Assembly: GCA_035937095.1 (NCBI GenBank) | Contig: DASYVN010000003.1 | Span: 1 to 59,836 of the forward strand | Direction: 5' to 3' | Source of the DNA: Candidatus Limnocylindria bacterium | GTDB lineage: Bacteria > Chloroflexota > Limnocylindria > P2-11E | DNA length: 59,836 nucleotides | Part shown: in pieces, positions 3,826 to 48,036 of the stretch | Numbering within the stretch: position 1 is the stretch's first letter | How the letters are laid out: each line of letters begins with the position of its first letter | Translations under genes and position numbers: made by a program | Notes under the pieces: generated by a model | Database searches by the model: none | Seen by the model: the letters and a program-made list of their open reading frames with translations, nothing else | Told to the model about the DNA's origin: nothing

Positions 3826-4233
3826 CTATTTGCGCTTGCGGGTGCTCTTCTTCCGCCCGGTGCTCTTGCGGGCGGTCGTCTTCTTCTTGCGTGCGCCGGT
3901 GCTCTTCCGGGCGGTCGTCTTCTTGCGCCCGGTGCTCTTCCGTGCCGTCGTCTTCTTGCGACCCGTCGTCTTGCGCCCGGTCGTCTTCCGTCCGGTGCTC
4001 TTCCGCGCGGTCGTCTTCTTGCGACCGCTGCTGGAGGTCGTCTTCTTGCGACCAGCCGCGCCGCCGCTCCGCGTGGTCTTCTTTCGTCCACCGCCGCTCG
4101 TGCCGCTCGATGCGGGCATCGGCGCCGGCGGCGGGGGCGTGCCCGGAAGCGGTGACGGCCAGCTCGACGCCGGCTCTTGCTGTGATCCGGACCACGTGTC
4201 GCCGCGATTGCCCTGTTCCATTGAGTCCTCCAC
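3826..4233 (-). CDS. Lys/Thr/Arg-rich tandem-repeat protein (histone H1/Hc-like, putative nucleoid-associated)
   Basis: The product contains ...GRKKTTARKSTGRKTTGRKTTGRKKTTARKSTGRKKTTARKSTG.... All six frames are open here. This frame has nearly all G/C at third codon positions (AAG AAG ACG ACC GCC CGG AAG AGC ACC GGC) and stops just before the terminator hairpin. Confidence 0.55.
   Translation of the reverse strand: MEDSMEQGNRGDTWSGSQQEPASSWPSPLPGTPPPPAPMPASSGTSGGGRKKTTRSGGAAGRKKTTSSSGRKKTTARKSTGRKTTGRKTTGRKKTTARKSTGRKKTTARKSTGARKKKTTARKSTGRKKSTRKRK
3841..4075. repeat. About 33-bp tandem coding repeats (unit CCGGTGCTCTTCCGGGCGGTCGTCTTCTTGCGC and variants)
   Basis: I can read about 5-6 imperfect head-to-tail copies. 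They encode the RKKTTARKSTG unit of the 3826..4233 protein. Confidence 0.7.
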
Positions 4234-4316: not shown

Positions 4317-5750
4317 TCACGGTCCGGTGCACCCGCGCTGCGCGATCGATGTCGGATCGCCTAGGGCGAGCCCGAGCTGCGCCCGCTCCGCGGTGTCCGC
4401 TGTTACGCGGAGGGCGTACGCACCGGCGAGCATCGGTGTGCCAAGCGTACCGGCGTACACGCCGTACCGATCGGTGACGGCGCGGAACGCGTAGTGCTGG
4501 CCCTGGCCGTCGACCGTCACGGCGATGCCGCTCTGCGGGCGGAAGCCGTAGGCGTACCAGATGCGCAGGCCATCTGGCCGCGCGGCGGAGACGAAGAGGC
4601 CCTGCCGGCACACCCCGAGAGCCCGGCCGGGCAGCTCGACCAGGAAGTGCGCGAGCGGCTCGCCGAGGGCGTCGGCGATCGCCGCGTCCGGCGGCCTGCC
4701 CGCGCCGATGCGCTCGAGCATCGCGACCAGCCCGGCGCGGCCGATTCGGTCCTCGAGGACGCGAACCGCTTCCGCCGCGACCCCGTAACCGTGTCCGCCG
4801 AGGTCGGTGTTGTACTGCAGCCACGACCGCTCGGAGCCGGTCATCGTGAGCGCCTCCGGATCGTTGCCGAGGATGGACAACGCGCTCGCCCGGTCGAAAC
4901 CGTAGGGGTCGCGCTCCTCGACCACGGTCGCGAGGCCCTCATCGAGCCAGGCCGGCACAGCGTCGCTTGACAACCGGTGGATGGCAACGTGGGTCAGCTC
5001 GTGACGGAAGATGGCGGTGCGGCCCGCGTTGAGGACGCTCTCGCCGTTGATCGCGATGGCGTCGATGCCGGCGAGCGTGATCCCTCCGGTCTGGCGGGAC
5101 AAGAAGCCGGCGGTGTCGGCCGAAAAACCGAACAGGCGCTCCAGCGCGTTCGCGAAAGACTGCCGGGAAGTGAAGAGGAACACCGCGGGCGGATCGCCGA
5201 AGCCGCGCGAGAAGTAGGCCTGTACCGCGGCGGCGTCGTCGAGGAGCGTCGCGTCGATCGCGTCTGCGATCGCCGTCGACATGGACGTCTCGGTCCACAA
5301 CTCGACCGCGCCCGTGCCGGTGCGGCGGAACTCAGGCCCGAGGCGCTGCCGGAGCAGGACGAGCGCGACCTCGCGCTGGAGCGCCTGCGCTGACTGCGAG
5401 CTTGCGGGCGGCGTGAGACAGAACCCCGGGGCATCGCCGGAGGCGAGCTGCGCGCAGGCATCCTGCCGGCGGGCCAACAGCATGGCCGGATCGCCGGTGC
5501 CGATCGCGGCCGGCAACGCGAGGCAGAACGAGGCGAGCGCCGCAGCGTCTTCGCAGGGGCGGGCCTGGTCGATGAACCGCCCCGGGGAGGCATCCGGTGA
5601 ACGGAATGGCGGCAGGGTCGCGCAGAACGTCAGCGCCGCGGATCCGCAATCCGCCGTCCCGGGCGCGGCCGACAACCGCGGGGCGATCCAGAGGAGCAGC
5701 GCGACGGCAACGCCGGCGGCGGCGAGGAGGGCGAGCCGGGTGCGGCTCAG
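4317..5750 (-). CDS. Membrane-anchored/secreted HExxH metallopeptidase-like protein (MA-clan like)
   Basis: It has FRHELTHVAIHRL (HExxH) and an N-terminal TM/signal segment LALLAAAGVAVALLLWIA. The track start at 5996 would overlap the upstream gene by 250 nt. I place the start at CTG 5750, which overlaps the upstream TGA (CTGA), but this is uncertain. Confidence 0.6.
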   Translation of the reverse strand: MSRTRLALLAAAGVAVALLLWIAPRLSAAPGTADCGSAALTFCATLPPFRSPDASPGRFIDQARPCEDAAALASFCLALPAAIGTGDPAMLLARRQDACAQLASGDAPGFCLTPPASSQSAQALQREVALVLLRQRLGPEFRRTGTGAVELWTETSMSTAIADAIDATLLDDAAAVQAYFSRGFGDPPAVFLFTSRQSFANALERLFGFSADTAGFLSRQTGGITLAGIDAIAINGESVLNAGRTAIFRHELTHVAIHRLSSDAVPAWLDEGLATVVEERDPYGFDRASALSILGNDPEALTMTGSERSWLQYNTDLGGHGYGVAAEAVRVLEDRIGRAGLVAMLERIGAGRPPDAAIADALGEPLAHFLVELPGRALGVCRQGLFVSAARPDGLRIWYAYGFRPQSGIAVTVDGQGQHYAFRAVTDRYGVYAGTLGTPMLAGAYALRVTADTAERAQLGLALGDPTSIAQRGCTGP

Positions 5751-8060: not shown

Positions 8061-10186
8061 GCCGTGCGCCCCGCAGGCACCCGGCGCGCCGCGACGCCCG
8101 ACATCCAGCCGGACAGCCGGCTGTGGTCAATGGGCTTGGTGAGGTGGTCGTCCGCGCCGAGCGCGCGGGCGCGACCATCGTCGTCATCGATGGAGACGAC
8201 GACCACCGGGATCGGTGGCGTCGCCTGTCGGGCGACGTTGAGGACCGCCTCGCCGCGGCCATCGGGCAGGTGGAGATCCAGGACCATCGCGATCGGCGGC
8301 TCCGCGCGGATCGATGCGATCGCCGCGGCGACGGTCCGGACGACCTCGCTTCGGAGGCCATGACCGCCGGCGAGGGCGATGATGAGATCGGCATCACGGC
8401 GCTCGTCCTCGACGATGAGCACGCGATCGCCTGCGACCACCGCTCCAGATACATCGGGCAGCCGGACCGCGAACGTGGTGCCCTCGTCGATGACGCTGGT
8501 AAAGGAGATGGTCCCGCCGTGCAGCTCGACCAGCCGCCTCGTGAGCGCGAGGCCGAGGCCGGTGCCGGCAGCGTCGGACCGCTCCTCGTTCGGACGCTCG
8601 AAAATGCCGAACACCCGGTCGTGCCGGTCGGCCGGGATACCGATCCCGGTGTCCGAGACCACGAGCAGGAGATCCCGGCCATCGAGGCGGGCGTCCAGAC
8701 GGATCGTGCCCCCCGCAGGCGTGAACTTCGTCGCGTTCGACAGCAGGTTGAGGAGGATCTGCCGCACTCGGCCGGGATCGACCCAGAGCAGCGTCGGATC
8801 CGACGCGTCGACCTCGAAGACCACCGCGCGCGCGGCGGCGGCCGGCTGGATGGCCGCGACGACCGGCTCGAGCAGCGCCCCGAGCGAACTGAGCTCCGGC
8901 CGCAGATCGACGCGCCCGGCCTCGACCTTGGACAGGTCGAGGATGTCGTTCACCAGCGCGAGAAGATGGTCGCCGGCGTCGTGAACGTTGCCGAGGTAGC
9001 GCCGCTGACGATCCGTGATCTGCGGGCCGATCTGCTCGCTCAGCAGGTCCGAGAAGCCGAGGATCGCGTTGAGTGGCGTCCTGAGCTCGTGGCTCATGTT
9101 CGCGAGGAACTCCGATTTTGCCTGGCTCGCAGCGGTGAGCTCGGTGTTCGCCAGGGCCAGGGCGGCCCGATGCCGCGCAAGCCGGCGGAATCCGCGCGCG
9201 AGGAACAACGCGGCCCCGAGGGTCAACGCGAGGAACGCGAGTGACACCGAGCCCAGGCCGGTGACCAGGGGCAGCACGGCAGCGTCGAGTGCCGCCGGAT
9301 CGTCGGTGACGATCAGGTGCCACACGACGCCGGTCACGGTAGCGGAGGCGACCAGACGCCGGGCGCCAACGAAGTCGGTTTCGCGCGCGACGCTCTCACC
9401 GCGGAGCGCGGCTGCGACCGTTGGGTCGGATGAGAGATCCGCCAGTGCGTCATCGCCGATGCCGGTCGCTCGGGTGATCAGCCGGCCGCGGCCGTCCACG
9501 AGGTAGACGTCGGCGAAGACGGCGCGCAGTCGGGCGAACCACTCGCTCGCAGCCCCGAGGTCGAGGGCTGCGCCGAGGACGCCCACCGGCACACCCATTG
9601 GATCCCGGACCGGCACAACGATCGCCACGGACGGCGGTGCACCCTGCAGGACGGTGACGAACGCTTCGGAAACATACGGCTGCCAGTCGCCGCGACTGAC
9701 GCCCTTGAAGTAGTCCCGCCCTGAGAAGTCCTTGCCCAGCGTGTCGGGCGCCGGCGGCTCGATCGCGAGGTTCGTGCCCGACCGGTCGAGCACGAAGACC
9801 CGCATGACTTGCTTGGGCATGAGTGCCTTGAATGGAATGAGGTATCGCTCCAGGACCGGACCGTTGCCGCTCGCGACGGTCGCGGCCAACCCCGGGTCCG
9901 CCGCAGCGGCGATCAGGCCGTTGCGGAGCTGATCGAGCTCCGAGGCGACGAACACCGCCGCCTGATCGGCCGCCTTGTGCTCGTCGAACAGCGTCTGGGC
10001 CCGCAAACCGTCCCGCGCGGCAGCGGTCGAAGCGAGGTCGAACACGAGGAGCGGCACGGCAACGAGGAGGGTGACGAGCACGGCAGTCCGCCACGGGCTG
10101 GCGGTCAGGCCGCCTGATACGCCCATCAGCCGGAGACGCTCGCGCACGCGGGCGCTGATGCGCCCACTATTCATCGACACGGTCAA
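8057..10186 (-). CDS. Hybrid sensor histidine kinase (TM, Cache-like extracytoplasmic domain, TM, HisKA, HATPase_c, REC)
   Basis: It has the H-box FLANMSHELRTPLNAILGF and N/G boxes (LLSNATKFT, DTGIGI, GTGLGLAL), followed by a C-terminal receiver-like domain. The N-terminal periplasmic region between the two TM segments is Cache-like. Confidence 0.9.
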   Translation of the reverse strand: MTVSMNSGRISARVRERLRLMGVSGGLTASPWRTAVLVTLLVAVPLLVFDLASTAAARDGLRAQTLFDEHKAADQAAVFVASELDQLRNGLIAAAADPGLAATVASGNGPVLERYLIPFKALMPKQVMRVFVLDRSGTNLAIEPPAPDTLGKDFSGRDYFKGVSRGDWQPYVSEAFVTVLQGAPPSVAIVVPVRDPMGVPVGVLGAALDLGAASEWFARLRAVFADVYLVDGRGRLITRATGIGDDALADLSSDPTVAAALRGESVARETDFVGARRLVASATVTGVVWHLIVTDDPAALDAAVLPLVTGLGSVSLAFLALTLGAALFLARGFRRLARHRAALALANTELTAASQAKSEFLANMSHELRTPLNAILGFSDLLSEQIGPQITDRQRRYLGNVHDAGDHLLALVNDILDLSKVEAGRVDLRPELSSLGALLEPVVAAIQPAAAARAVVFEVDASDPTLLWVDPGRVRQILLNLLSNATKFTPAGGTIRLDARLDGRDLLLVVSDTGIGIPADRHDRVFGIFERPNEERSDAAGTGLGLALTRRLVELHGGTISFTSVIDEGTTFAVRLPDVSGAVVAGDRVLIVEDERRDADLIIALAGGHGLRSEVVRTVAAAIASIRAEPPIAMVLDLHLPDGRGEAVLNVARQATPPIPVVVVSIDDDDGRARALGADDHLTKPIDHSRLSGWMSGVAARRVPAGRTA

Positions 10187-10311
10187 ACGGTACTGTTCGT
10201 TTCGGCAGATGGAAGGTCTACGTAGGTATACCGAACGGCTTCAGCTCCCGCCGACTGGGGTCGGGAGGCCGCATCTGGGCCCGGCGGGTCGTCGTACCGC
10301 GCAATGACCGC

Positions 10312-11385
10312 GTGGCCGCGGCGCTCTCCGGCACGGCACGGCGGCCGCTGATCCCCGTGGGGTCCGCGCCCGAGCGACGCCGTGAGCAGCCCGGGCGCCG
10401 GCATGCCGACCTCTGGCTCCAGCTCACGCCGCGGCAGCGTCTCGTGCTCGACCGCGTGACCGCCGGTTCGTCGAACAAGGAGATCGCCACGCAGCTCGGC
10501 GTGAGCGAGCAGGCGGCCAAGCAGCAGGTTTCCAAACTGCTAACGCGATTCGGCGTCGAGAGCCGCACGGCGCTCGCGCAATCGGCGCTCGCGATCCGCA
10601 TCACGGGCCAGCGCGAAAGCGATCTGCCGTTGGAGTACCTCTTCGACCTCGCGCCGGTGGCGATGGCCATGACGAGTGGGCCGGAGCACGTGTTCCGGGC
10701 AGTCAACCGCACGTTCACCCAGCTGTTCGGGGATCGGGATGGCTGGATCGGCTACCGCCTCCGCGACCTCCTCATGGAGGCAGAGCCGGCCTTGCTGCCG
10801 CTGGTCGACGCCGCCTACCAGGCCGGCACGGGCACCCAGCAGGGCGGCGTTCCAGTGAAATGGACCGGTCGGGATGGCGCGACCGAGCGCTCGCTGATGA
10901 TCACGGTCGAACCGACCCGCAGGGCGGCGGGTGCGGTCAGCGGGCTGGTGTTCTTCGGCGTCGATGTGACCGAGGAGATCGACCTCCGGGTGCGGCTCCA
11001 GACCGCGCAGGCCCAGGAGCAGGCGATCGTCCAGCGGCTCCCGGGCCGTATCGCGGTCATCGTCGTCGACCGGGCCGGCCTGCCGGTCACGACGACCGGC
11101 CCACTAACAGAGATCCTGGGCGAGCCGCTGCAGCCCGACGTGGTGCTCGCTGCACAGGCGCCGCGGTACGCCCTCCGGTGGGCGGACACGGGTCTGCCCC
11201 TGAGCGCGGCGAACAGCCCCTCGGTGCGGGCACTCGCCGGTGAGGACGTCACGGCCGAGCTCGTCGGCCGGGTCCACCGCGATGGCCCAGCGATAAAGCT
11301 CCGGGTCTCAGCTCGGCCGATGCGAGGCGCGAACGACGAGATCGTCAGCGCGGTCCTCGTCCTCGAGGAGCTTCCGGCCGATTAG
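10312..11385 (+). CDS. LuxR-type HTH (N-terminal) + PAS-like domains regulator
   Basis: LTPRQRLVLDRVTAGSSNKEIATQLGVSEQAAKQQVSKLLTRFGV is a LuxR/GerE HTH. It is followed by two PAS-like segments (FDLAPVAMAMTSGPEHVFRAVNRTFTQLFG...). The start is uncertain. Confidence 0.75.
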   Translation: MAAALSGTARRPLIPVGSAPERRREQPGRRHADLWLQLTPRQRLVLDRVTAGSSNKEIATQLGVSEQAAKQQVSKLLTRFGVESRTALAQSALAIRITGQRESDLPLEYLFDLAPVAMAMTSGPEHVFRAVNRTFTQLFGDRDGWIGYRLRDLLMEAEPALLPLVDAAYQAGTGTQQGGVPVKWTGRDGATERSLMITVEPTRRAAGAVSGLVFFGVDVTEEIDLRVRLQTAQAQEQAIVQRLPGRIAVIVVDRAGLPVTTTGPLTEILGEPLQPDVVLAAQAPRYALRWADTGLPLSAANSPSVRALAGEDVTAELVGRVHRDGPAIKLRVSARPMRGANDEIVSAVLVLEELPAD

Positions 11386-13042: not shown

Positions 13043-14844
13043 CACTCCTGCGTGATCCTGAGCACCGCGAGGAAGGCCTCCTGCGGGATCTCGACCGCTC
13101 CGACCATCTTCATCCGCTTCTTGCCCTTCTTCTGCTTCTCCAGGAGCTTCTTCTTCCGGGTGATGTCGCCGCCGTAGCACTTCGCGAGCACGTCCTTGCG
13201 CTTGGCCTTCACCGTCTCGCGCGCGATTACCTTCCCGCCGATGGCCGCTTGGATCGGCACGTCGAACATCTGCTTCGGGATGAGCTCGCGGAGCTTCGCC
13301 GTGAGCGCACGGCCGATGGCCATCGAGCGCTCGCGATGGACGATCATCGAGAGCGCGTCGACGACGGTACCGGCGACGAGGATGTCGAGCCGCACGAGAT
13401 CCGCGGCGCGGTACTCGCGCAGCTCGTAATCGAGCGAGGCGTAGCCCTGCGAACGGCTCTTCAGCTGGTCGTAGAAGTCGACGATGACTTCGGCCAGCGG
13501 CATGTCGTACGTGAGCATCGCCCGGGTCGGGTCGACGTAGCTCATGTCCGTGAGCACGCCACGCTTGCCCTGGCTGAGGTCCATGATCGGGCCGACATAG
13601 CCCTGCGGCACGATGATCGTCACCTTCATCCACGGCTCACGCACCTCGACGATCGTGGCCGGGTCGGGCAGCTTGGCCGGGTTATCGATCGCGACCTCAC
13701 CGGTGTGGGTGATGACCCGGTATTCGACCGAGGGTGACGTCGCGATGAGGTCGACGTCGTATTCGCGCTCGAGCCGCTCCTGGACGATGTCCAGGTGCAG
13801 GAGGCCGAGGAACCCGGCGCGGAAGCCGAAGCCGAGGGCCTGCGAGTTCTCCGGCTCGTACACGAGGGACGCGTCGTTCAACCGCAGCTTCTCGAGAGCG
13901 TCACGGAGCGCCGGATACTCCTCTCCAAGGATCGGATAGAAACCAGCGAAGACCATCGGCTTCGCCGGCCGGTACCCGGGGAGCGGCTCTCGGGCCGGGT
14001 TCGCAGCGAGCGTCAGGGTGTCTCCCACCCGGCAATCGGCCACCGCCTTGAGGCCGGTCGCGACGTAGCCGACCTCGCCGGTGGCAAGACGCTGGATCGG
14101 TACGGCGTTCGGCGCGAAGACGCCGAGCTCCAGGAGGTCGCTCTGCTTCTGGGTGGCCATCAGGAGGATGCGGTCGCCCTGCCGCACGGCGCCGTCGACG
14201 ATCCGCACGTGCGCGACGACACCCTTGTACGCGTCGTAGTGCGAATCGAAGATCAGGGCTCGGAGGGGCGCGTCCTGGTCGCCGCTCGGGGGCGGGACGC
14301 GGTCGACGACCGTGTTCAAGATCTCCGCGACCCCGAACCCGGTCTTGCCGGATGCGAGGAGGACCTCCTCGTCCTTGAACCCGAGCGTCGTCCGGAGGTC
14401 CTCCTTCACGAGCTCGATGTCGATGTTCGGCAGGTCGATCTTGTTGATCACGGGGACGACCTCGAGGCCCTGCTCCACGGCGAGGTACGCGTTCGCGAGG
14501 GTCTGCGCCTCGATGCCCTGCGAGGCGTCGACGAGCAGGACCGCGCCTTCGCACGCCGCGAGCGACCGGCTCACCTCGTAGTTGAAGTCGACGTGACCGG
14601 GCGTGTCGATGAGATTCAGCTCGTATGACTCGCCATCCTTCGTCCAGGCCATCCGGACCGCGCGGGCCTTGATCGTGATGCCCTTCTCGCGCTCGAGGTC
14701 CATCGAGTCCAGGAGCTGATCGCGCATCTCCCGCATCGCGACCGTGCCGGTCAGCTCGAGGATGCGGTCGGACAGCGTCGTCTTCCCGTGGTCAACATGG
14801 GCGATGACGCTGAAGTTGCGGATGCGCTGCCGCGCGTCGGACAT
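13042..14844 (-). CDS. lepA: Translation elongation factor 4 (LepA)
   Basis: It starts [23 protein letters not shown] and ends with the LepA C-terminal blocks ...[24 protein letters not shown]. Confidence 0.97.
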
Positions 14845-14867
14845 GCGAGGAGCCTAGGTGACTGCGC

Positions 14868-16421
14868 TCACCGGCGGCCGAGCCGCGCGCGCACCGCGGC
14901 GGTGATCTCGGCGAGCTCGCTCACGCGGAACACCATCGCCGCACCGACGTACGCGACGACGCCGACGGCCATGGCCACGGCGGTCTGGAGCAAGAGCCCG
15001 ACCTTCGTCTGCTGCAGGTCGACGGTGATGTTCGTGGCCCGGATGAACGCGAACATGGCGATGCCCATCAGCAGGCTCGCGGCGATGACCTTCAGCGACG
15101 AGGTGCCGAGGCCAACGACCTGGAGGCGCGCCCGCGGTGCGAGCAGCACGAGGAACAGCACGGCTTCGGCCAGGGTCGCGATCGAGTTCGCGAGTGCCAG
15201 GCCGTTGATCCCGTACGACGGCGCCAGCAGTACCGACAGGACGATGTTCGTGCCGATCGACACGAGCGTCAGCGCCAGCGGCGTACGAGTGTCCTTCGAC
15301 GCGTAGTACGCGCGGGCGAGGATCTGGATGAGCGCGTGGCCGACGAGGCCGAGCGAGTAGAACAGGAACGCTTCCTGCGTCGCCTCGCGGGCCTCGGGGC
15401 CGAACTGGCCGTACTGGAACAGGAGGTTCACGATCGGGCGGCGCAAGACGATCATCATCACGATCGTCGGCACCGTGAGGAACAGGATCCAGCGGATCGC
15501 CGTCTGGAGGATGTCGCGCATCCGGGCCTGCATCCCCTGCGCCGCGTAGTGGGCGAGGGTCGGGAACACGGCCGCGCTGATGGCGATCGAGAACACCCCG
15601 AGCGGCAGCTGCATGAGCTGGAACGCGTAGATGAGGGCGGTGAGCGAGCCCTCCGGCATCTTCGCCGCGAGGTACGTGTCGACGATGAAGATCAGCTGCA
15701 CCGCGCCCAGCGCCAGCGTGCGTGGGAGGGTGAGGCGCACGATCTCGCGGACGCCGGGATGGCCGAGATCGAGGGTGAGCTTGTAGCGCGTGCGCCGGAA
15801 CGTGAGCTCGGGGATCTGGACCAGCCACATCATGAGCGCGCCGGCGACGGTGCCCCACGCGAGGGCTTCGATACCGAGGAACGGCGACGCGAAGAGCGCG
15901 AACAGGATGATCACGAAGTTGTAGACGATCGGCGCTGTCGCGCCCGAGAGGAATTGCCGGTACGAGTTGAGGATCCCGGTGAAGAGCGCGGAGAGGCCCA
16001 TGAAGATCGGGCTGAGCAGCATGATCCGTGAGAGGTGGACCGCGGTCTCACGTTGCGCCGGGTCGGGGAACTGCGCGAGAACGGGCATGATCCATGGCGC
16101 GAGGACCCAGAGGATCGCCGAGAACGCGACCAGCGAGATGACGATCGCGTTCAGGACGCTCGATGCGACGCGCCAGGCCTCGTCCTCGCGCTCCTTGGCG
16201 AGATACCCGGTGAAGACCGGGATGAACGCGCTCGCGAGCGCACCGGCCACGAGCAGGTTGAACAGCGTGTCGGGGATCCGGAACGCGGCCCAGAACGCGT
16301 CGAGCTCCGGCGTCTGCCCGAACTTCGCGCCGATCACCGACAGGCGGAGCCACCCGAGAAGTCGGCTTGCGATGAGCGTCGCGATCATGAGCAGCGACGC
16401 CCGGCCGATGCTCATCTGCAT
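14868..16421 (-). CDS. murJ: Lipid II flippase MurJ/MviN
   Basis: The internal start gives MQMSIGRASLLMIATLIASRLLGWLRLSVIGAKFGQTPELDAFWAAFRIPDTLFNLL.... The track's N-extension would overlap rpsT and is Arg-rich junk. Confidence 0.9.
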   Translation of the reverse strand: MQMSIGRASLLMIATLIASRLLGWLRLSVIGAKFGQTPELDAFWAAFRIPDTLFNLLVAGALASAFIPVFTGYLAKEREDEAWRVASSVLNAIVISLVAFSAILWVLAPWIMPVLAQFPDPAQRETAVHLSRIMLLSPIFMGLSALFTGILNSYRQFLSGATAPIVYNFVIILFALFASPFLGIEALAWGTVAGALMMWLVQIPELTFRRTRYKLTLDLGHPGVREIVRLTLPRTLALGAVQLIFIVDTYLAAKMPEGSLTALIYAFQLMQLPLGVFSIAISAAVFPTLAHYAAQGMQARMRDILQTAIRWILFLTVPTIVMMIVLRRPIVNLLFQYGQFGPEAREATQEAFLFYSLGLVGHALIQILARAYYASKDTRTPLALTLVSIGTNIVLSVLLAPSYGINGLALANSIATLAEAVLFLVLLAPRARLQVVGLGTSSLKVIAASLLMGIAMFAFIRATNITVDLQQTKVGLLLQTAVAMAVGVVAYVGAAMVFRVSELAEITAAVRARLGRR

Positions 16422-41087: not shown

Positions 41088-41735
41088 TCACTCGAGCGCG
41101 GCGATGGTCTCCGGAAGCCCAGAAAGGTCGCGCAGGATACGGTCCGGCGTCGTCGTCAGCCCCTCGCCGTGCCGATCGATGAACACCGTGCGGTAGCCGA
41201 GCGCGGCCGCCGGCAGCATGTCGTGGTACTGGCTCGCGCCGACGTGCACGGTCTCGGCCGCCGTCGCGCCGGTCAGCTCGGCGAAGCGCGTCCAGTGACC
41301 CGCCGCCGGCTTGTAGCTGCCGACGTCCTCGGCGGTGACGACCAGGTCCGGCGTGATCCCGAGCTTCGGGATGGACGTCGCGATGAGGTCACGATCCACG
41401 TTCGAGAGGATGGCGATCCGCCGCCCCGCCGTCCGTAGCGCCCGCAACGCCCCAGGGACCTCCGGGAACGCGGCCCAGCGGGGCAGCGAGGCCGGCAGCG
41501 GCGACGGCCGCTCGATCCCGTGCTTGCGCAGGAGCGCCGTGCCCGCGCGGTCCAGCACGTCGTGATACCGCAGGTACGCTCCGCTCTCCACCGACGCCTC
41601 GGTCTCGATGTACTCGCGCGCCAGCGCGTCGCGGTCCACGTCAGCCGCGAGCAGTGGCAGGAGGGCATCGGTGATGCCGCCCTCCCAGTCGATGAGCGTG
41701 CCGTAGCAGTCAAATGTGCACCAGCGGATCGCCAT
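41088..41735 (-). CDS. HAD-superfamily hydrolase (2-haloacid dehalogenase-like subfamily)
   Basis: It starts MAIRWCTFDCYGTLIDWEGGI (HAD motif I DxYGTL) and has ILSNVD and a VGSYKP-type motif. Confidence 0.85.
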   Translation of the reverse strand: MAIRWCTFDCYGTLIDWEGGITDALLPLLAADVDRDALAREYIETEASVESGAYLRYHDVLDRAGTALLRKHGIERPSPLPASLPRWAAFPEVPGALRALRTAGRRIAILSNVDRDLIATSIPKLGITPDLVVTAEDVGSYKPAAGHWTRFAELTGATAAETVHVGASQYHDMLPAAALGYRTVFIDRHGEGLTTTPDRILRDLSGLPETIAALE

Positions 41736-41776
41736 GCTGGCAAACGATAGGTCGAGCAGGCCCCAGAATCAGCCGC

Positions 41777-42691
41777 GTGGAAGCGAGGCTCTGGCCTCTA
41801 AACGCCCTGATCGCTCTCCTTAAGGGTGACGGCGGATGGCCGCGGCCTCTGGGCGACTTGGGCTTCGCGCTTCATCGAATTGAACTCCCCGTTGTCACTT
41901 CGGCGGGCGGGATCGTGATAGATGTCGTCGCAAGCCGAGACCATCCGGCCGCGTTGCTTGCCTGTGAAGGCAAGAGCGGCAATAACGTAGAAGAACCGCA
42001 GGCAATCAAGTACAAAGCGTTGACTACAGACGACGTACGGCGGCTCACCGGGCGCGTCAGCGGGCCGACCCACGTTGTCTACGCATGCTTTGAGGCATCG
42101 CTTGCTCGGATCCGGCTGGGACTTGCGAAGGTTGGCCTCGACGCGAACATTCTCACCATCAGCGAGCGACGGGCGCAGCTGATTCCGTCAGAAACCGGGG
42201 CAGAGTTGGCGTTCGAGGAACTACTCCCTGGCACGCCACCTCCGCGGTACATCCCTGTCGATGGCGACAGTCCGGACGAGGAGTATCGCGAAGTTCTGCT
42301 GCCCGCCATTGTCGCAAGCGCGGCGCGCTCCATCGATCGACTGACGGTTCAAACGCTATGCGAGAGCACCATGCCTATGTGGACGCATGTCGGCCGCGAC
42401 CAAGCCCGTCGTGTGCACGAACGCTCAGTCGACGTGCTGACTCGTTTGGCCGCCACGGCTGAATTCCGAAATTTCTTCTCGATCGAACCAGGCGGCAGAG
42501 ACCTATCGGCCGCGGTCGTACGAATTCTCAGAACGCCGGCCGCGTTCGATCCGCGTGGGGAGACCCAGGGCTGGCAGGGAATACAGCGCCGGGCAACCAA
42601 AGTCATGCGCGGACGCGGAATCCCGGTGTCGCCGGGCCAACTATCATTCGAAGACTTGGCGCAAGCAGAAGGCGTAGGACCGGACGAATGA
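41777..42691 (+). CDS. Island gene A: hypothetical protein with RecB/Cas4-like PD-(D/E)xK nuclease motifs in the N-terminal ~110 aa
   Basis: ...HRIELPVVTSAGGIVIDVVASRDHPAALLACEGKSGNNVEEPQAIKYKAL... carries hhhD (IVIDVV), ExK (EGK) and QxxxY (QAIKY) in canonical order and spacing. Many codons end in A/T, unlike the neighbours. Start is uncertain: GTG 41777 is chosen because ATG 41714 would overlap the divergent HAD gene. Confidence 0.6.
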   Translation: MEARLWPLNALIALLKGDGGWPRPLGDLGFALHRIELPVVTSAGGIVIDVVASRDHPAALLACEGKSGNNVEEPQAIKYKALTTDDVRRLTGRVSGPTHVVYACFEASLARIRLGLAKVGLDANILTISERRAQLIPSETGAELAFEELLPGTPPPRYIPVDGDSPDEEYREVLLPAIVASAARSIDRLTVQTLCESTMPMWTHVGRDQARRVHERSVDVLTRLAATAEFRNFFSIEPGGRDLSAAVVRILRTPAAFDPRGETQGWQGIQRRATKVMRGRGIPVSPGQLSFEDLAQAEGVGPDE

Positions 42692-43776
42692 AGAACATGC
42701 GCGCCATGACCCGTGACGACGTCACCGAACAGTTCAGCCTCGCTATGTCTGGTCAGCCACGCGAGTACGCGCTTGGGCGCTCGACCGGGACAATCAAGAC
42801 CTATGCGATTGAAGCAAACGTGGGAGGCACAGTCGAGCACGCGCTGAAACGCGTCTCTGCGCTGGCGAAGGCAGTCGACCTCAAGTTTGCGCAACTCCAG
42901 GACGAGTCCCTAGCGGTGATTCATTCCGACGACGAAACACTCGTCGTAGATGTACTCGACAGCCGTTTCTGGCTGGTCCATACGACAGCGAAGGCTGATT
43001 TTGCGAAGTCCATCCTCCGTAACGCGGTCTGGGCCGATCGTGATCTCGACTGGTGCTGGCTACCTAAGGACCTAGTCGCAGCCATTGGTAAAGCTGGCGA
43101 AGTCGCTTGGTTTCGGTCTGACTTCGCAAGTGACGAGTTAACCCCTGGGCGGGGACAACGGGCTCGGCGCTTGAGAGTGCAGTTGGAGGGGGATCGCGCC
43201 TACGAACTCCTTGACGTGATCAGCGACAATCCGGATTACCGCCACGCCGCCTCACTCACCGCCGTCGCCATCAGAACGTCACAGCGCGGCTTTGGTCATC
43301 TCGAAGAGATCGCCGACTACAAGGCCCGCTTCGTCGGCCATGGCGACTCGTTTGAACTTCACGTCGGGCTTGTAAGCCAGGTGATTCGTTCGTACTCGCA
43401 GATCGTGCGCGATCTCGAGCGGACCTACGCCTTGAAGTGGTCTGCCGCCGATGGTGGCGGTGCCAATCTCGAGGGTCAGGTCATAACCCTGCGCTTCAAG
43501 AAGCAGATCGAAGACTTCGATCGCTTCTTGAGCGGCCTGTTCTCTTGCCGCGAGCCTTTCCGCCTCTGGGGCGTTCCGAAACGCATAAGTGACTCGGCAG
43601 CCATAGTCGACGCAGTCGACTTACATGTCGGATCCGTTCTCCGAATGGATGTCCTTGCTGATGGTCTGCGGGTCTACCTCAGCGACGACAACTGTGGAAA
43701 CAGCGTCACTCGGCTGCTAGCCAATTTGCAGCACCGGTATGACGCCACGATCGAAAGTCCGGTGAAGGCAAACTAG
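42688..43776 (+). CDS. Island gene B: hypothetical 362-aa protein, no recognisable domain or P-loop
   Basis: ATG 42688 overlaps the gene A stop (ATGA). The sequence looks like a normal protein (…VVDVLDSRFWLVHTTAKADF…, …AVDLHVGSVLRMDVLADGLRVYLSDDNCGNSVTRLLANLQHRYD…). This is the lowest-GC stretch of the window (about 52-58% in hand-counted 60-nt lines). Confidence 0.65.
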   Translation: MKNMRAMTRDDVTEQFSLAMSGQPREYALGRSTGTIKTYAIEANVGGTVEHALKRVSALAKAVDLKFAQLQDESLAVIHSDDETLVVDVLDSRFWLVHTTAKADFAKSILRNAVWADRDLDWCWLPKDLVAAIGKAGEVAWFRSDFASDELTPGRGQRARRLRVQLEGDRAYELLDVISDNPDYRHAASLTAVAIRTSQRGFGHLEEIADYKARFVGHGDSFELHVGLVSQVIRSYSQIVRDLERTYALKWSAADGGGANLEGQVITLRFKKQIEDFDRFLSGLFSCREPFRLWGVPKRISDSAAIVDAVDLHVGSVLRMDVLADGLRVYLSDDNCGNSVTRLLANLQHRYDATIESPVKAN

Positions 43777-44987
43777 CTTTGTAGACGCTCCGCGATCTTC
43801 GCGATGAGCCGGCGCGCGACCTCGCGCTTCGACAGGAGCGGCAGGGCCTCGGCCCCGTCCGCGCTCACGAACGTGACCTGGTTCGTGTCGCCGCCGAATC
43901 GCGAGCCGTCGGCCGTCACGTCGTTGGCGACGACGAGGTCGAGCCCCTTCTCCCGCAGCATCCGCGACGCCTCGGCGACGGCATCGCCGGTCTCGGCCTT
44001 GAAGCCGACGACGAGCGTCCGCGGATCGCGCTTGGCGATGACCGTCTGAAGCACGTCGGGGTTCCGCAGGAGCGTGAGCCCGACCTCGTCGCCCTGCTCG
44101 TGCTTCTTGAGCTTGCGGTCCGCCGGGTGTGCCGGGCGATAGTCGGCGACGGCGGCGGCCATGATCACCGCGTCCGCGCCCGGGAGGGCGGCGAGCACGG
44201 CATCGCGCAGCTCGGCGGCCGTCTCGATCGCGACCATCGTCACCGCGGCCGGGGGTCGAAGGGCCGTCGGCCCGCTCACGAGGGTGACCTCGGCGCCGGC
44301 ACGCTGCGCGGCCGCGGCGATCGCGTAGCCCATCTTCCCGCTCGACCGGTTCGTCAGGACGCGCACGGGGTCGATCGGCTCGAGCGTCGGGCCGGCGGTG
44401 ACGATGACGCGCTTGCCGGCGAGCGCCGATGAGGTCGTGAGCGCGTCCTTGATGGCGGCGCCGATGGCCTCGAGCGACGCGAGCCGGCCGTGGCCGATGA
44501 GTCCCGACGCGAGCTCGCCGCTCTCCGGCTCGACGATCGCCGCGCCGCGATCGCGGAGCGTGTCCACGTTCGCCTGCGTCGCGGGGTTCGCCCACATGTG
44601 CGTCTCCATGGCCGGCGCGATGACGAGCGGCGCGTGCGCGGCGAGCACGGTCGTGCCGATGAGGTCGTCGGCGAAGCCGTGCGCGAGCCGCGCGATCGTG
44701 TGCGCGGTGGCCGGCGCGATGACGACGACGTCGGCCTGCTGCCCCATCGCGACGTGTCCGGCCGCCCGATCGTCGAACGTGCCGAACATCTCGATCTCGA
44801 CGGGGCGGTACGTGAGCGCTTGGAACGTGAGCGGCTGCACGAATTGCGTCGCACCGGGCGTCATGACCACCTGCACGGTCGCGCCGGCCTGGGTCATCCG
44901 ACGAGCGAGCTCGACGACCTTGTAGACGGCGATCGAACCGGTCACCGCAAGGACGATGAACTTGCCCCGCAGCACTTCGGCGTTCAC
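43773..44987 (-). CDS. coaBC: Bifunctional phosphopantothenoylcysteine decarboxylase / phosphopantothenate-cysteine ligase
   Basis: It has FIVLAVTGSIAVYK (flavoprotein domain) and a CoaB domain (VTAGPTLEPIDPVRVLTNRSSGKMG). A GTGA overlap links it to coaX. Confidence 0.95.
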   Translation of the reverse strand: MNAEVLRGKFIVLAVTGSIAVYKVVELARRMTQAGATVQVVMTPGATQFVQPLTFQALTYRPVEIEMFGTFDDRAAGHVAMGQQADVVVIAPATAHTIARLAHGFADDLIGTTVLAAHAPLVIAPAMETHMWANPATQANVDTLRDRGAAIVEPESGELASGLIGHGRLASLEAIGAAIKDALTTSSALAGKRVIVTAGPTLEPIDPVRVLTNRSSGKMGYAIAAAAQRAGAEVTLVSGPTALRPPAAVTMVAIETAAELRDAVLAALPGADAVIMAAAVADYRPAHPADRKLKKHEQGDEVGLTLLRNPDVLQTVIAKRDPRTLVVGFKAETGDAVAEASRMLREKGLDLVVANDVTADGSRFGGDTNQVTFVSADGAEALPLLSKREVARRLIAKIAERLQS

Positions 44988-45855: not shown

Positions 45856-46377
45856 TCAATCTGAAGGCTCGGTCGCCCCGGTACGCAGGCCGTGCTTCGC
45901 CTTCTTCGCGAGGGCCTTCGCGACGTTCGCCGGGACGAGGCCGTCGACGGGCGCACCGAACGCAGCGAGCTCCTTCACCCGCGACGCGGACACGAAGAGG
46001 TACTCCGGGGCGGTCATCAGGAAGACCATCTCGAGGTCCACGGCGAGGCGACGGTTCATGTTCGCCATCTCGAACTCGAACTCGAAATCGGACAGGGCGC
46101 GGATCCCGCGGATGATGAACATCGCGCCGACCTCGCGCGCGAACTCGACCTGGAGGCTGTCGAACGTGCGGACCTCGACGTTCTTCAACTTGACGCAGGC
46201 CTCCTCCATGAGGGCGACCCGCTCGTCCGCCGTGAAGACCGTCTTTTTGGAGAGATTGCGGCCGACGCCGATGACGACACGGTCAAAGAGCCGTGCCGCA
46301 CGGCCGACGATGTCGAGATGCCCGTTCGTCGGTGGGTCGAACGAGCCGGGGTAGATGGCGACGCGTGGTGTGGTCAC
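45856..46377 (-). CDS. coaD: Phosphopantetheine adenylyltransferase
   Basis: It has VAIYPGSFDPPTNGHLDIVGRAARLFDRVVIGV. Confidence 0.95.
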   Translation of the reverse strand: MTTPRVAIYPGSFDPPTNGHLDIVGRAARLFDRVVIGVGRNLSKKTVFTADERVALMEEACVKLKNVEVRTFDSLQVEFAREVGAMFIIRGIRALSDFEFEFEMANMNRRLAVDLEMVFLMTAPEYLFVSASRVKELAAFGAPVDGLVPANVAKALAKKAKHGLRTGATEPSD

Positions 46378-46423
46378 GTGGTCGCGCCTCCTTGTTATCG
46401 GTAGTGCACGCCGCGCGATAAGC

Positions 46424-46681
46424 CTACCTCTTGGTCAGCGCGACTCCGGAGAGGAGCAGTCCGGCAGCGAGCGTGATCGCCGCGGCGATGGTGGCAATGT
46501 CGGCGGCGATGCCATGGACGGCGATGCCGGCCAAACCCGAGCCCACCAGGCCGCCGGCAATGGCGGCGCCGGCCCGGCCGCGCGCAGCGGCGAACGGGAG
46601 CACGAACACGAGCCCGAGCACGATGCCGCCGAGGGACGCGAAGAGGCCACCGATGAGCGCGCCGGCGATGGCGCCGCCCAG
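46424..46681 (-). CDS. Possible small glycine-zipper membrane protein (GlsB/YeaQ-like?)
   Basis: The C-terminal part of ORF 46424..47107 reads LGGAIAGALIGGLFASLGGIVLGLVFVLPFAAARGRAGAAIAGGLVGSGLAGIAVHGIAADIATIAAAITLAAGLLLSGV. Start is unclear (CTG 46681 or GTG 46621). Several frames are open here. Confidence 0.35.
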   Translation of the reverse strand: MGGAIAGALIGGLFASLGGIVLGLVFVLPFAAARGRAGAAIAGGLVGSGLAGIAVHGIAADIATIAAAITLAAGLLLSGVALTKR

Positions 46682-46701
46682 CCACCAGGGGAGCCGGCCG
46701 G

Positions 46702-48036
46702 TTAGATGCCCGCGCTGAAGATCTGCCACTCGTCGGGTACTCCCTTCAACTGTCGGGCGCCCCGCGGCTCGAAGTGCAACCCCGACCCTGAGACGAGATC
46801 GCGGACCGTGCTCGTGACGAGAACCTCGCCCGGAGCCGCCTGCTCGCGCACCCGCGATCCGATGATCGTGGCGATCCCCCCGATCTTGCCCGCGATGATC
46901 TGACATTCGCCGGTGTGCACGCCGGCCCGGATCGCGATGCCGAGGTCCCCGACCGCATCGCGGACCGCGATGCCACAGCGCACCGCGCGTGCTGGACCGT
47001 CGAACGACGCGTAGAAGCCGTCGCCCGCCGTGTCGATCTCCTGACCCCGGAAGCGGGCAAGGTGGGTGCGGACGACCTGATGGTGCCGCTCGACGAGCGC
47101 ACGCCACGCGCGGTCGCCGAGCTCGGCAGCCTTCGCGGTCCCATTCACGATGTCGGTGAACAACACCGTCGCGAGGAACCGATCGGCGTCCGGCGCGGAA
47201 CGAGCGCCGGTCAGGAATTCCTGGATCTCCCCGATGATCTCGGCTTCATGGGAGACGTACCAGAGGTGATCTCCGCTCGGCAGCTCGACGTACCGCGCGG
47301 CCGGAATGTGGGACGCGAGATATCGTCCCTCCTCGACGCGGACGTCCCGGTCGCCGTTCGCTTGCAGCACGAGCGTCGGCACGCGGACGAGCGGAAGGAT
47401 CGCGCGGACGTCGACGAAGGAGTTCATCCGCATGAGCGCGGCTGCGGCGCCTGGGCTCGCGCTCCGCCGAAGGTACGTCGCGAACCACTCAGCGAAGGGC
47501 ACGTCTCCCGCGGCGCTCGGCGCATAGAAGCTCATGTCGACCGGGCCGCCCCACTGGCGCTCCGTCTCGCTGACCGCTGCCATCCGATCGTCGAAGGCCG
47601 GCGCCCAGGGGTAGTCCTCGGATCGCAGCCGCTTCGCGAACGCGCCGTACGTGATCAACGCCTGGGTCCTCTCAGGGTACGTCGCCGCGAAGACGATGCA
47701 CATGCATCCACCTTCTGAATGGCCGAAGAGAGCGGCTCGCTCGCTGCCGACCGCGTCCATGACCGCGCGTAGGTCGTCCATTCGGGTCTCGATCATCGGT
47801 AGCTCCGTGACGCCGACGCGATCCGAGAGCCCGGTTCCGCGCTTGTCGAAGAGGATGAGCCGGCAGAACGACGCGAGATCCCGGAAGACCTGCGCGAGCC
47901 GCGGCTGCTCCCACATCAACTCGATGTTCGAGACGAAGCCGGGCACGTAGACCAGATCGAACGGCCCCTCGCCGACCACCTGGTAGGCGATGTTCAGCTC
48001 GCCGCTCTTCGCGTACCGCGTCTCCGGGACGTTCAG
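46702..48036 (-). CDS. Alpha/beta-hydrolase + class III adenylate/guanylate cyclase fusion (LipJ/Rv1900c-like architecture); apparent CTG start
   Basis: The hydrolase part has FDKRGTGLSDR and GHSEGG. The cyclase part has ATVLFTDIVNGT, DTAGDGFYASF and AGVHTGE. The typical family N-terminus (L)NVPETRYAKSGELNIAYQVVGEGPFDLVYVPGF begins upstream of the first canonical start (GTG 47979). It begins at CTG 48036, which overlaps the hutI TGA. Confidence 0.85.
   Translation of the reverse strand: MNVPETRYAKSGELNIAYQVVGEGPFDLVYVPGFVSNIELMWEQPRLAQVFRDLASFCRLILFDKRGTGLSDRVGVTELPMIETRMDDLRAVMDAVGSERAALFGHSEGGCMCIVFAATYPERTQALITYGAFAKRLRSEDYPWAPAFDDRMAAVSETERQWGGPVDMSFYAPSAAGDVPFAEWFATYLRRSASPGAAAALMRMNSFVDVRAILPLVRVPTLVLQANGDRDVRVEEGRYLASHIPAARYVELPSGDHLWYVSHEAEIIGEIQEFLTGARSAPDADRFLATVLFTDIVNGTAKAAELGDRAWRALVERHHQVVRTHLARFRGQEIDTAGDGFYASFDGPARAVRCGIAVRDAVGDLGIAIRAGVHTGECQIIAGKIGGIATIIGSRVREQAAPGEVLVTSTVRDLVSGSGLHFEPRGARQLKGVPDEWQIFSAGI

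Follow-up and report, generated by a model that had tools for sequence, protein, structure and literature searches.

A two-gene island in the genome of Candidatus Limnocylindria (Chloroflexota) was found to encode a real, selected and mobile nuclease–partner module, which, as far as its function can be judged from genomic context, is a good candidate for a new immune system. The window, i.e. the whole stretch of DNA that was analysed, is the entire 59.8 kb contig (59,836 nt) of a metagenome-assembled genome. The island consists of gene A (41777..42691, + strand, 304 aa) and gene B (42688..43776, + strand, 362 aa). Both families are already known in so far as they are catalogued in Pfam (PF27326 for A and PF25924 for B), with no function assigned. 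The feature described beforehand was confirmed, and its earlier interpretation proved right in large part. We favour, at a little better than an even chance, the reading that A and B constitute a mobile two-protein module for methyltransferase-independent, nuclease-based defence against phages or other invading DNA.

Gene B is annotated by NCBI as a hypothetical protein (HEV2009438.1) and had at first been described as an orphan, a label that no longer applies. A word-indexed search returned 342 homologues, and PF25924, which is named 'MJECL33' in the gene tables, was carried by 120 of the 120 among the matches listed; an exhaustive profile search of 1.84 billion representatives gave 767 clusters at 50% identity with uniform lengths of ~350–400 aa. 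B is 95% identical to P0001, a PF25924 carrier. It matches MJECL33 on the 58 kb extrachromosomal element (ECE) of M. jannaschii (tblastn E = 9e-26; B profile 2.7e-64) and phrog_22469 (E = 1e-35), a PHROG family of unknown function; further copies were found by tblastn on Halobacterium, Lysinibacillus, Metabacillus and B. cereus plasmids. On these matches gene B is assigned to the MJECL33 (PF25924) family. Relatives of B were absent from the phage database (tblastn) and from IMG/VR, which is neutral for a defence function. For gene A nine relatives were obtained by a single-sequence search and 24 by a profile search. The A homologues P0127 and P0128 (E = 1e-70) carry PF27326, named MJECL32, and the A-family profile matches MJECL32 itself at 4e-12, the partner gene in Halobacterium at 4e-19 and that in Bacillus at 3e-10. 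By sequence similarity gene A is accordingly placed in the MJECL32 (PF27326) family. B is accompanied by an adjacent homologue of A in the archaeal and plasmid copies, and the pair in the window corresponds to two adjacent genes, MJECL32 and MJECL33, on the M. jannaschii ECE.

The linkage of the two genes was assessed in 65 species-level genomes gathered with the B profile. A homologue of A adjoins B in 58 of them, 51 in the order A→B, with a 4 nt overlap in most, and seven in the order B→A. The latter order is that of a divergent clade of Longimicrobiales, Dehalococcoidia and Tepidisphaeraceae; it is also found on the archaeal and Bacillus plasmids. The pairwise distance matrices of A and B are strongly correlated (Mantel r = 0.87, with none of 500 permutations as high), with mean pairwise distances of 0.65 for B and 0.70 for A, and one metagenomic protein of 655 aa (P0155) is a natural A–B fusion. 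A and B are inherited, selected and exchanged as one unit, and the proposal that they act as a single functional unit is borne out by their adjacency in either order, the matrix correlation and the fusion. In the A part of P0155 the tyrosine of the QxxxY motif is replaced (QALRL); the fusion could be genuine or could have arisen from a sequencing error or a frameshift.

The N-terminal domain of A (residues 1–150; 41777..42226, + strand) is predicted to be PD-(D/E)xK nuclease-like, with putative activity, on the basis of conserved residues, an AlphaFold2 (AF2) model and weak Foldseek matches. Conservation was counted over 64 homologues, the alignment having 65 rows including the window's own A. 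Six candidate catalytic residues, E36 (codon 41882–84), D49 (41921–23), E64 (41966–68), K66 (41972–74), Q75 (41999–42001) and Y79 (42011–13), all on the + strand, are each kept in 56–63 of the 64 homologues, the individual counts being 57 for D49, 63 for E64 and 59 each for K66, Q75 and Y79. The motifs hhhD (IVIDVV), ExK (ACEGK) and QxxxY (QAIKY), which had been pointed out beforehand, are all present. The literal signature 'PD..(E/D)CK..QxxxY' occurs in the archaeal and Halobacterium homologues, and the Bacillus copy has PE for PD. The AF2 model of A (predicted local distance difference test, pLDDT, 88; predicted template-modelling score, pTM, 0.79) comprises a helix at 3–16, strands at 31–41, 44–55 and 58–66, a helix at 73–80 and a strand at 98–105, an order that fits the α-β-β-β-α-β core of PD-(D/E)xK enzymes; in the model D49 lies on strand 44–55, E64-x-K66 on strand 58–66 and Q75xxxY79 on the following helix. 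Foldseek gave weak matches to AF1548 (PDB entry 1Y88), DrdV nuclease, Bax1, SfsA, Can2, Cdn1 and the R2 RLE domain. The assignment of A as a PD-(D/E)xK-type nuclease in the preliminary description is in keeping with the conserved triad and QxxxY, the order of strands and these matches.

The same description had called A 'RecB/Cas4-like'. This holds at the level of the QxxxY motif only: there is no profile match to Cas4/PDDEXK_1-type families, and the set of four Fe–S cysteines of Cas4/AddB is absent, A having three cysteines, none of them invariant (C104 is present in 33 of 64 homologues). Membership of the Cas4/RecB family was rejected on these two grounds. The Pfam copy used for the domain scans holds neither the PF25924 nor the PF27326 model. 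Against this copy A gave no family at E ≤ 1, and its homologues, at E ≤ 10, gave only a marginal Hjc match (E = 0.22); A had no NCBIfam match, and a profile search against PDB sequences returned zero matches.

The C-terminal region of A, previously regarded as unknown, can be divided into two parts. Residues ~167–250 (42275..42526, + strand) form a MarR-like winged helix–turn–helix (wHTH) domain, putatively DNA-binding, to which many MarR-family structures align in Foldseek (TMt 0.3–0.37) and in which the pLDDT exceeds 87. It is followed by a conserved tail of low order (residues 255–304; 42539..42688, + strand; pLDDT 45–66), which is probably disordered. The tail carries the motif G-E/R-T-Q-x-W/Y-Q ... 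RGR ... Q-L-S-F/L-E/D-D-L, in which G261, T263, Q264, Q267 and Q288 are kept in 47–57 of the 64 homologues; its alignment does not extend to the archaeal forms or the B→A clade. The tail may serve as a peptide by which A docks to B or to a host factor. A reading of its end (Q-L-S-F-E-D-L) as a β-clamp or PIP-box motif was set aside as speculation, the consensus being matched only partially.

The AF2 model of B (pLDDT 92.5, pTM 0.91) shows about three α/β modules. No close relative of this fold was found in the PDB or BFVD with Foldseek (TM ≤ 0.37); its modules weakly resemble TBP-like folds, namely Iml3, TBP, AdoMetDC and the N-terminal domains of RnlA (Foldseek, TM ≤ 0.35). Thirty columns of the B alignment are invariant, many of them polar, and include E42, D88, R93, W95, H98, D121, PFRLW 290–294 and VDLH 310–313, as well as C336, N338, R342 and NLQ 346–348 in the C-terminal part. 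Scans against the Pfam copy and NCBIfam gave no usable match to B, and a profile search against PDB sequences gave none at all. Two candidate identities were discarded. An HsdS-like specificity subunit was suggested by a lone 12-bit PADLOC match, with no HsdS among the Foldseek results and a different secondary structure; a second PD-(D/E)xK nuclease in the first domain of B was dismissed for want of an ExK motif.

The genomic context in other genomes was surveyed by a census of 355 genes within three positions of the pair, in three sets; the figures are raw recurrences with no background control. In sets 1 and 2 the top Pfam families were HsdR_N, HsdM_N, Methylase_S, ResIII, integrases, DDE and Mu transposases and PIN; in set 3, mostly Longimicrobiales, they were those of housekeeping genes. 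The neighbours matched the PADLOC models REase_I, MTase_I, Specificity_I, HmaA, JetA/B and DrmA/D, and further BrxH, PD-Lambda-3_B, IetA, ShosA and an MkoA-like helicase; they also included GmrSD_N, HEPN, OLD, Wadjet and toxin–antitoxin (TA) genes. Integrases and transposases are frequent near the pair. Type I restriction–modification (R-M) genes lie within three positions in at least five loci, and in six independent loci the pair forms a co-directional tail directly downstream of hsdM-S-R (L006, which shares its contig with L071; L072; L013; L024; L025; L027). The order in L010 (2723–8088) is hsdM-hsdS-A-B, and hsdR was not detected in the six genes upstream or the five downstream of B; here A–B might substitute for the restriction subunit. 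The pair also follows an Eco57I/MmeI-type enzyme, Type III Res and Mod, SNF2-NOV_C and an SMC-like ATPase, and in L007 a giant DEAD-MZB-S24 protein lies downstream of it. On a B. cereus plasmid the pair stands between MazF and Hachiman. Its neighbours on the M. jannaschii ECE are HsdR, PIN, the EVE/YTH reader MJECL36, an OLD-type endonuclease and VapBC (PMC8868631). The recurrence of R-M, defence, integrase and transposase genes beside the pair, together with its occurrence on plasmids, shows that elsewhere it clearly lies in the surroundings of defence islands and mobile elements.

Solitary copies of B lie in defence islands likewise: in L055 B directly follows hsdR-M-S and in L028 it adjoins GmrSD_N and HEPN. 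In L055 (Candidatus Aldehydirespirator; 10004–11056 and 13119–15484) a second, divergent B-like gene of 434 aa was noticed ~2 kb away on the other strand, followed by a 355 aa gene without a Pfam match, possibly a diverged A. In the M. jannaschii ECE (L073) MJECL36 (4401–4835) is a solved YTH/EVE-like reader of modified nucleotides (PDB entry 2P5D); it is encoded three genes upstream of MJECL33–MJECL32, in the same island as the OLD-type endonuclease.

Within the window the pair stands out by composition, as had been described from hand counts. In windows of 300 nt the GC content is 0.56–0.63 in the island versus 0.70–0.76 in the flanks, and the GC content at third codon positions (GC3) is 0.66 in A and 0.68 in B versus 0.86–0.94 in every neighbouring gene. 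From ~34.5 to 50.7 kb A and B are the sole credible + strand genes, which agrees with the earlier statement that they interrupt a 16 kb block of minus-strand genes. Of 64 loci, 58 have a pair with a lower GC3 than the neighbouring genes, the mean gap being 0.11. The distribution of the pair is patchy across phyla and plasmids and does not follow phylogeny; it was found in methanogen plasmids, Actinomycetota, Chloroflexota, Myxococcota, Gemmatimonadota and Bacillota.

The interval between the HAD and coaBC genes was compared in related genomes, a comparison that had been put forward as an empty-site test. In the sister lineage (L003/L004) the island occupies the identical position and has identical boundaries, its GC3 being 0.65 versus 0.91. 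In L076–L079, the CoaBC of which is ~70% identical, the order CoaD-CoaX-CoaBC-HAD is kept, A and B are missing and the interval holds in their place a co-directional gene of 205 aa with host-like GC; L080 has a further gene of 472 aa in the interval. In some genomes (L076, 7191–7811; L080, 7191–9315) the 205 aa gene is translationally coupled to coaBC. Gene replacement seems to have a local hotspot in this interval. Because of its composition, its absence from the relatives with ~70% identical CoaBC and its patchy distribution, the pair is foreign in this genome.

The acquisition is nevertheless not recent. Between the window and L003 the A and B proteins are 95% identical versus 84–92% for the products of the flanking genes, the synonymous divergence (dS) is 0.70 for A and 0.96 for B versus 0.44–0.56 for the flanks, and the ratio of nonsynonymous to synonymous divergence (dN/dS) is 0.031 for A and 0.028 for B versus 0.07–0.23 for the flanking housekeeping genes. 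Since the dS of the pair is at least as large as that of the flanks, a recent transfer was rejected as the explanation for the 95% identity; the dS points to purifying selection instead. Judged from these sequence comparisons, the island predates the split of the lineages of the window and L003, and both genes are under very strong purifying selection. Of the horizontal acquisition proposed at the outset the foreign origin stands, and a recent date does not. The GC3 of the pair is 0.65–0.68 in both hosts (window, 41777–43776; L003, 9090–11086), with host genes at ~0.9, so that no drift to host usage is seen; the retained foreign codon usage may reflect selection for AT-richness or low expression.

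In the defence reading A and B would form a complex, as suggested by their translational coupling, the one fusion and possibly docking through the tail of A. A would be the DNA-cleaving effector, placed on DNA by its winged helix, and B, with its three α/β modules and many invariant polar residues, would be a sensor, specificity or gating subunit that keeps A off self DNA until foreign nucleic acid, modified DNA or a phage protein is recognised. A gating or targeting role for B is proposed because most loci, including the window, lack a cognate methyltransferase. Several points weigh against this reading. The argument for a defence function is one of guilt by association, and other defence genes are lacking around the pair in the window and in the Longimicrobiales clade, where its neighbours are housekeeping genes. 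B occurs without A in seven of the 65 genomes and in Thermostaphylospora, and B is therefore not strictly dependent on A. The Foldseek matches of A to PD-(D/E)xK nucleases are weak (E ≥ 6.7e-3, TM ≤ 0.37), no sensor, NTPase or modified-base-reader domain is recognisable in B by Pfam or Foldseek, and neither protein has a profile match in the Pfam copy, NCBIfam or PADLOC. A wider conjecture is offered tentatively, at somewhat less than an even chance: MJECL32/MJECL33 would be an undescribed immune system common to bacteria and archaea, in which B, a new fold of three TBP-like modules, serves as the subunit for sensing or specificity and licenses a PD-(D/E)xK–wHTH nuclease, and which could do without a methyltransferase or NTPase; the system could act by itself or back up Type I, IIG or III operons, and its AT-shifted codon usage might itself be functional, for example in xenogeneic silencing or expression control.

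The position of the pair behind R-M operons also fits a more dependent role, in which A–B assists or guards a resident R-M system and B senses inhibition of the restriction complex, or modified DNA, and frees A; this would make the pair a Type IV-like or anti-anti-restriction second line and not an autonomous system. Such a role is consistent with the six hsdM-S-R tails and hsdM-S in L010, the loci behind Type IIG and Type III genes, the solitary B genes of L055 and L028, the lack of a methyltransferase in the cassette itself, and the combination of wHTH and PD-(D/E)xK domains in A, which is the repertoire of Mrr-type Type IV enzymes. It is nonetheless thought unlikely. R-M genes are missing from the three to six genes on either side of the pair in most loci, the window among them, and the pair must therefore be able to act, or at least persist, alone; SRA, EVE/YTH, DUF262 or similar reader folds were not detected in A or B with Pfam or Foldseek; and Type I R-M genes are the commonest members of defence islands anyway. 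That A is a toxic nuclease and B its antitoxin, the pair being a selfish stabiliser of plasmids or islands with no primary immune role, would account for a translationally coupled cassette found on plasmids, beside TA genes and as a stand-alone insertion among housekeeping genes, and for the fixed stoichiometry implied by the overlap and the fusion. We regard this as decidedly improbable: both proteins exceed 300 aa, and B, at ~360 aa, is the more conserved of the two (0.65 versus 0.70; 30 invariant columns), unlike the small and fast-evolving antitoxins of Type II systems; either gene may come first, depending on the clade, several genomes retain B but not A, and a dN/dS of 0.03 on both genes, at a chromosomal site and a dS of ~0.7–1, suggests a benefit to the host.

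Little credence is given to a function in DNA repair, recombination or element maintenance, for example as a structure-specific nuclease with an accessory factor of mobile elements. The weak structural neighbours of A include Bax1, SfsA and the C-terminal half of UvrC, to which the marginal Hjc match can be added, the pair is found on large plasmids and in the vicinity of integrases, and, speculatively, the conserved peptide at the C-terminus of A could bind a hub of replication or repair; against this stand the patchy distribution not bound to phylogeny, the foreign codon usage, the close relatives without the pair at the same site and neighbours that are overwhelmingly R-M, defence and TA genes and not replication or repair genes. 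It is scarcely credible that the genes are inert passengers or the decaying remnants of an old insertion. No promoter- or terminator-like signals were detected and some family members elsewhere are frameshifted or truncated (L040, L060, L063, L069 and L070), but both ORFs in the window are intact with all conserved residues present; because dN/dS is ~0.03 at a dS of 0.70–0.96 between two lineages, neutral decay is incompatible with the data and this explanation is effectively refuted.

The pair matches no system in PADLOC-DB v2.0.0 (2023), which agrees with the initial failure to recognise any named defence system: A gave no match and B only a sub-threshold match to Specificity_I (E = 0.02, 12 bits) that Foldseek does not support. 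No description of MJECL32, MJECL33 or phrog_22469 was found in the literature; of the neighbouring genes MJECL36, the YTH/EVE reader, is the only one discussed there. The nearest relatives are PF27326, PF25924 and phrog_22469, to which A and B are homologous and with which they share the architecture of an adjacent pair, the Pfam families being named after genes of the M. jannaschii 58 kb ECE; in comparison with the archaeal and Bacillus MJECL32–33 genes the clade of the window has the reverse order, A→B, and an A with the additional conserved C-terminal tail. AF1548, an archaeal PD-(D/E)xK-fold protein of unknown function, is the best Foldseek match of A (E = 6.7e-3, probability 0.87), but the TM scores are only 0.26/0.37 at 15% identity, its C-terminal domain differs and no partner is known for it.

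Hachiman (HamA and HamB), Shedu (SduA) and Lamassu with Mrr- or Cap4-type effectors have PD-(D/E)xK effectors and no cognate methylase and are found in defence islands. By analogy, A–B would resemble them as a nuclease effector that is coupled to or controlled by a part with a sensing or non-catalytic role. However, their PADLOC profiles match neither A nor B, B is neither a helicase nor an SMC ATPase, and its fold matches no solved defence protein. Mrr-type Type IV enzymes combine the same two domain types as A and are likewise independent of a methyltransferase; A differs from them in the order of its domains, nuclease before wHTH, in its nearly constant separate partner B and in the lack of a Mrr_cat or Mrr_N Pfam match. 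RnlA/LsoA (RNase LS), which are toxin–antitoxin defence proteins, and other proteins of TBP-like fold (TBP, Iml3, AdoMetDC) come into the comparison through the weak similarity of the modules of B to TBP-like domains, such as those at the N-terminus of RnlA; at TM ≤ 0.35 and with no HEPN domain in B, this similarity goes no further than a widespread small fold and does not demonstrate homology. The anticodon nuclease PrrC and the Campylobacter rlo genes are found within Type I R-M operons or attached to them, a position that A–B also takes in at least six loci; their sequences and folds are unrelated to those of A and B, and most A–B pairs are not beside R-M genes.

The boundaries of the island are sharp. 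A ends at 42691, and its frame is open from either of two starts, an ATG at 41714 or a GTG at 41777. Because the N-terminus of the homologues ('ME.RL.PLNA') is conserved and aligns with GTG 41777, this codon was taken as the start, in place of the earlier position of 41736; the in-frame ATG overlaps the HAD gene. The stop codon of A and the start codon of B overlap in the ATGA at 42688..42691 (+ strand), as described beforehand, an arrangement of translational coupling. The left edge of the island is a divergent intergenic spacer of 41 bp (41736..41776) between the start of the flanking gene for a HAD-family hydrolase (41088..41735, − strand, GC3 0.92; start at 41735) and that of A. At the right edge there is, as had been observed, no intergenic DNA: the convergent TAG stops of B and of the flanking host gene coaBC (43773..44987, − strand, GC3 0.94) overlap in the palindrome CTAG (43773..43776), and L003 is arranged identically. 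The absence of mobility genes nearby was likewise upheld: neither integrases nor transposases are encoded by the flanking genes, the edges of the island show no att-like direct repeats, and the contig contains no tRNA and no Rfam family. Promoter and terminator scans gave matches at chance level, and no σ70-like promoter was found in the 41 bp spacer.

Three further features of the contig were recorded. A + strand ORF of 116 aa (46355–46702, GC3 0.72) between coaD and the next minus-strand gene is probably spurious. A short ORF at the contig end (59422–59652) with a tyrosine-recombinase-like motif (FHDLRHTAATLLL) probably represents a piece of an integrase gene; ~16 kb of DNA with housekeeping genes separates it from the island. 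An imperfect tandem repeat (3846–4032; period 33/63 nt, ~5.6 copies of 33 nt or 2.7 of 63 nt, 78–79% matches) sits in a dubious ORF of 136 aa with the repetitive translation 'LRxVLFFRPVL'.

The very low dN/dS of the pair, together with foreign codon usage that has not drifted, poses a puzzle as to how acquired genes are kept and regulated, and the repeated occurrence of the pair at the 3′ end of restriction operons provides a testable case of layered defence. If the defence reading is true, a compact two-gene nuclease system free of both an NTPase and a methylase would join the prokaryotic immune repertoire, the fold of B could reveal a new mode of recognition of foreign nucleic acid or of nuclease gating, and two Pfam families and one PHROG would gain a function.

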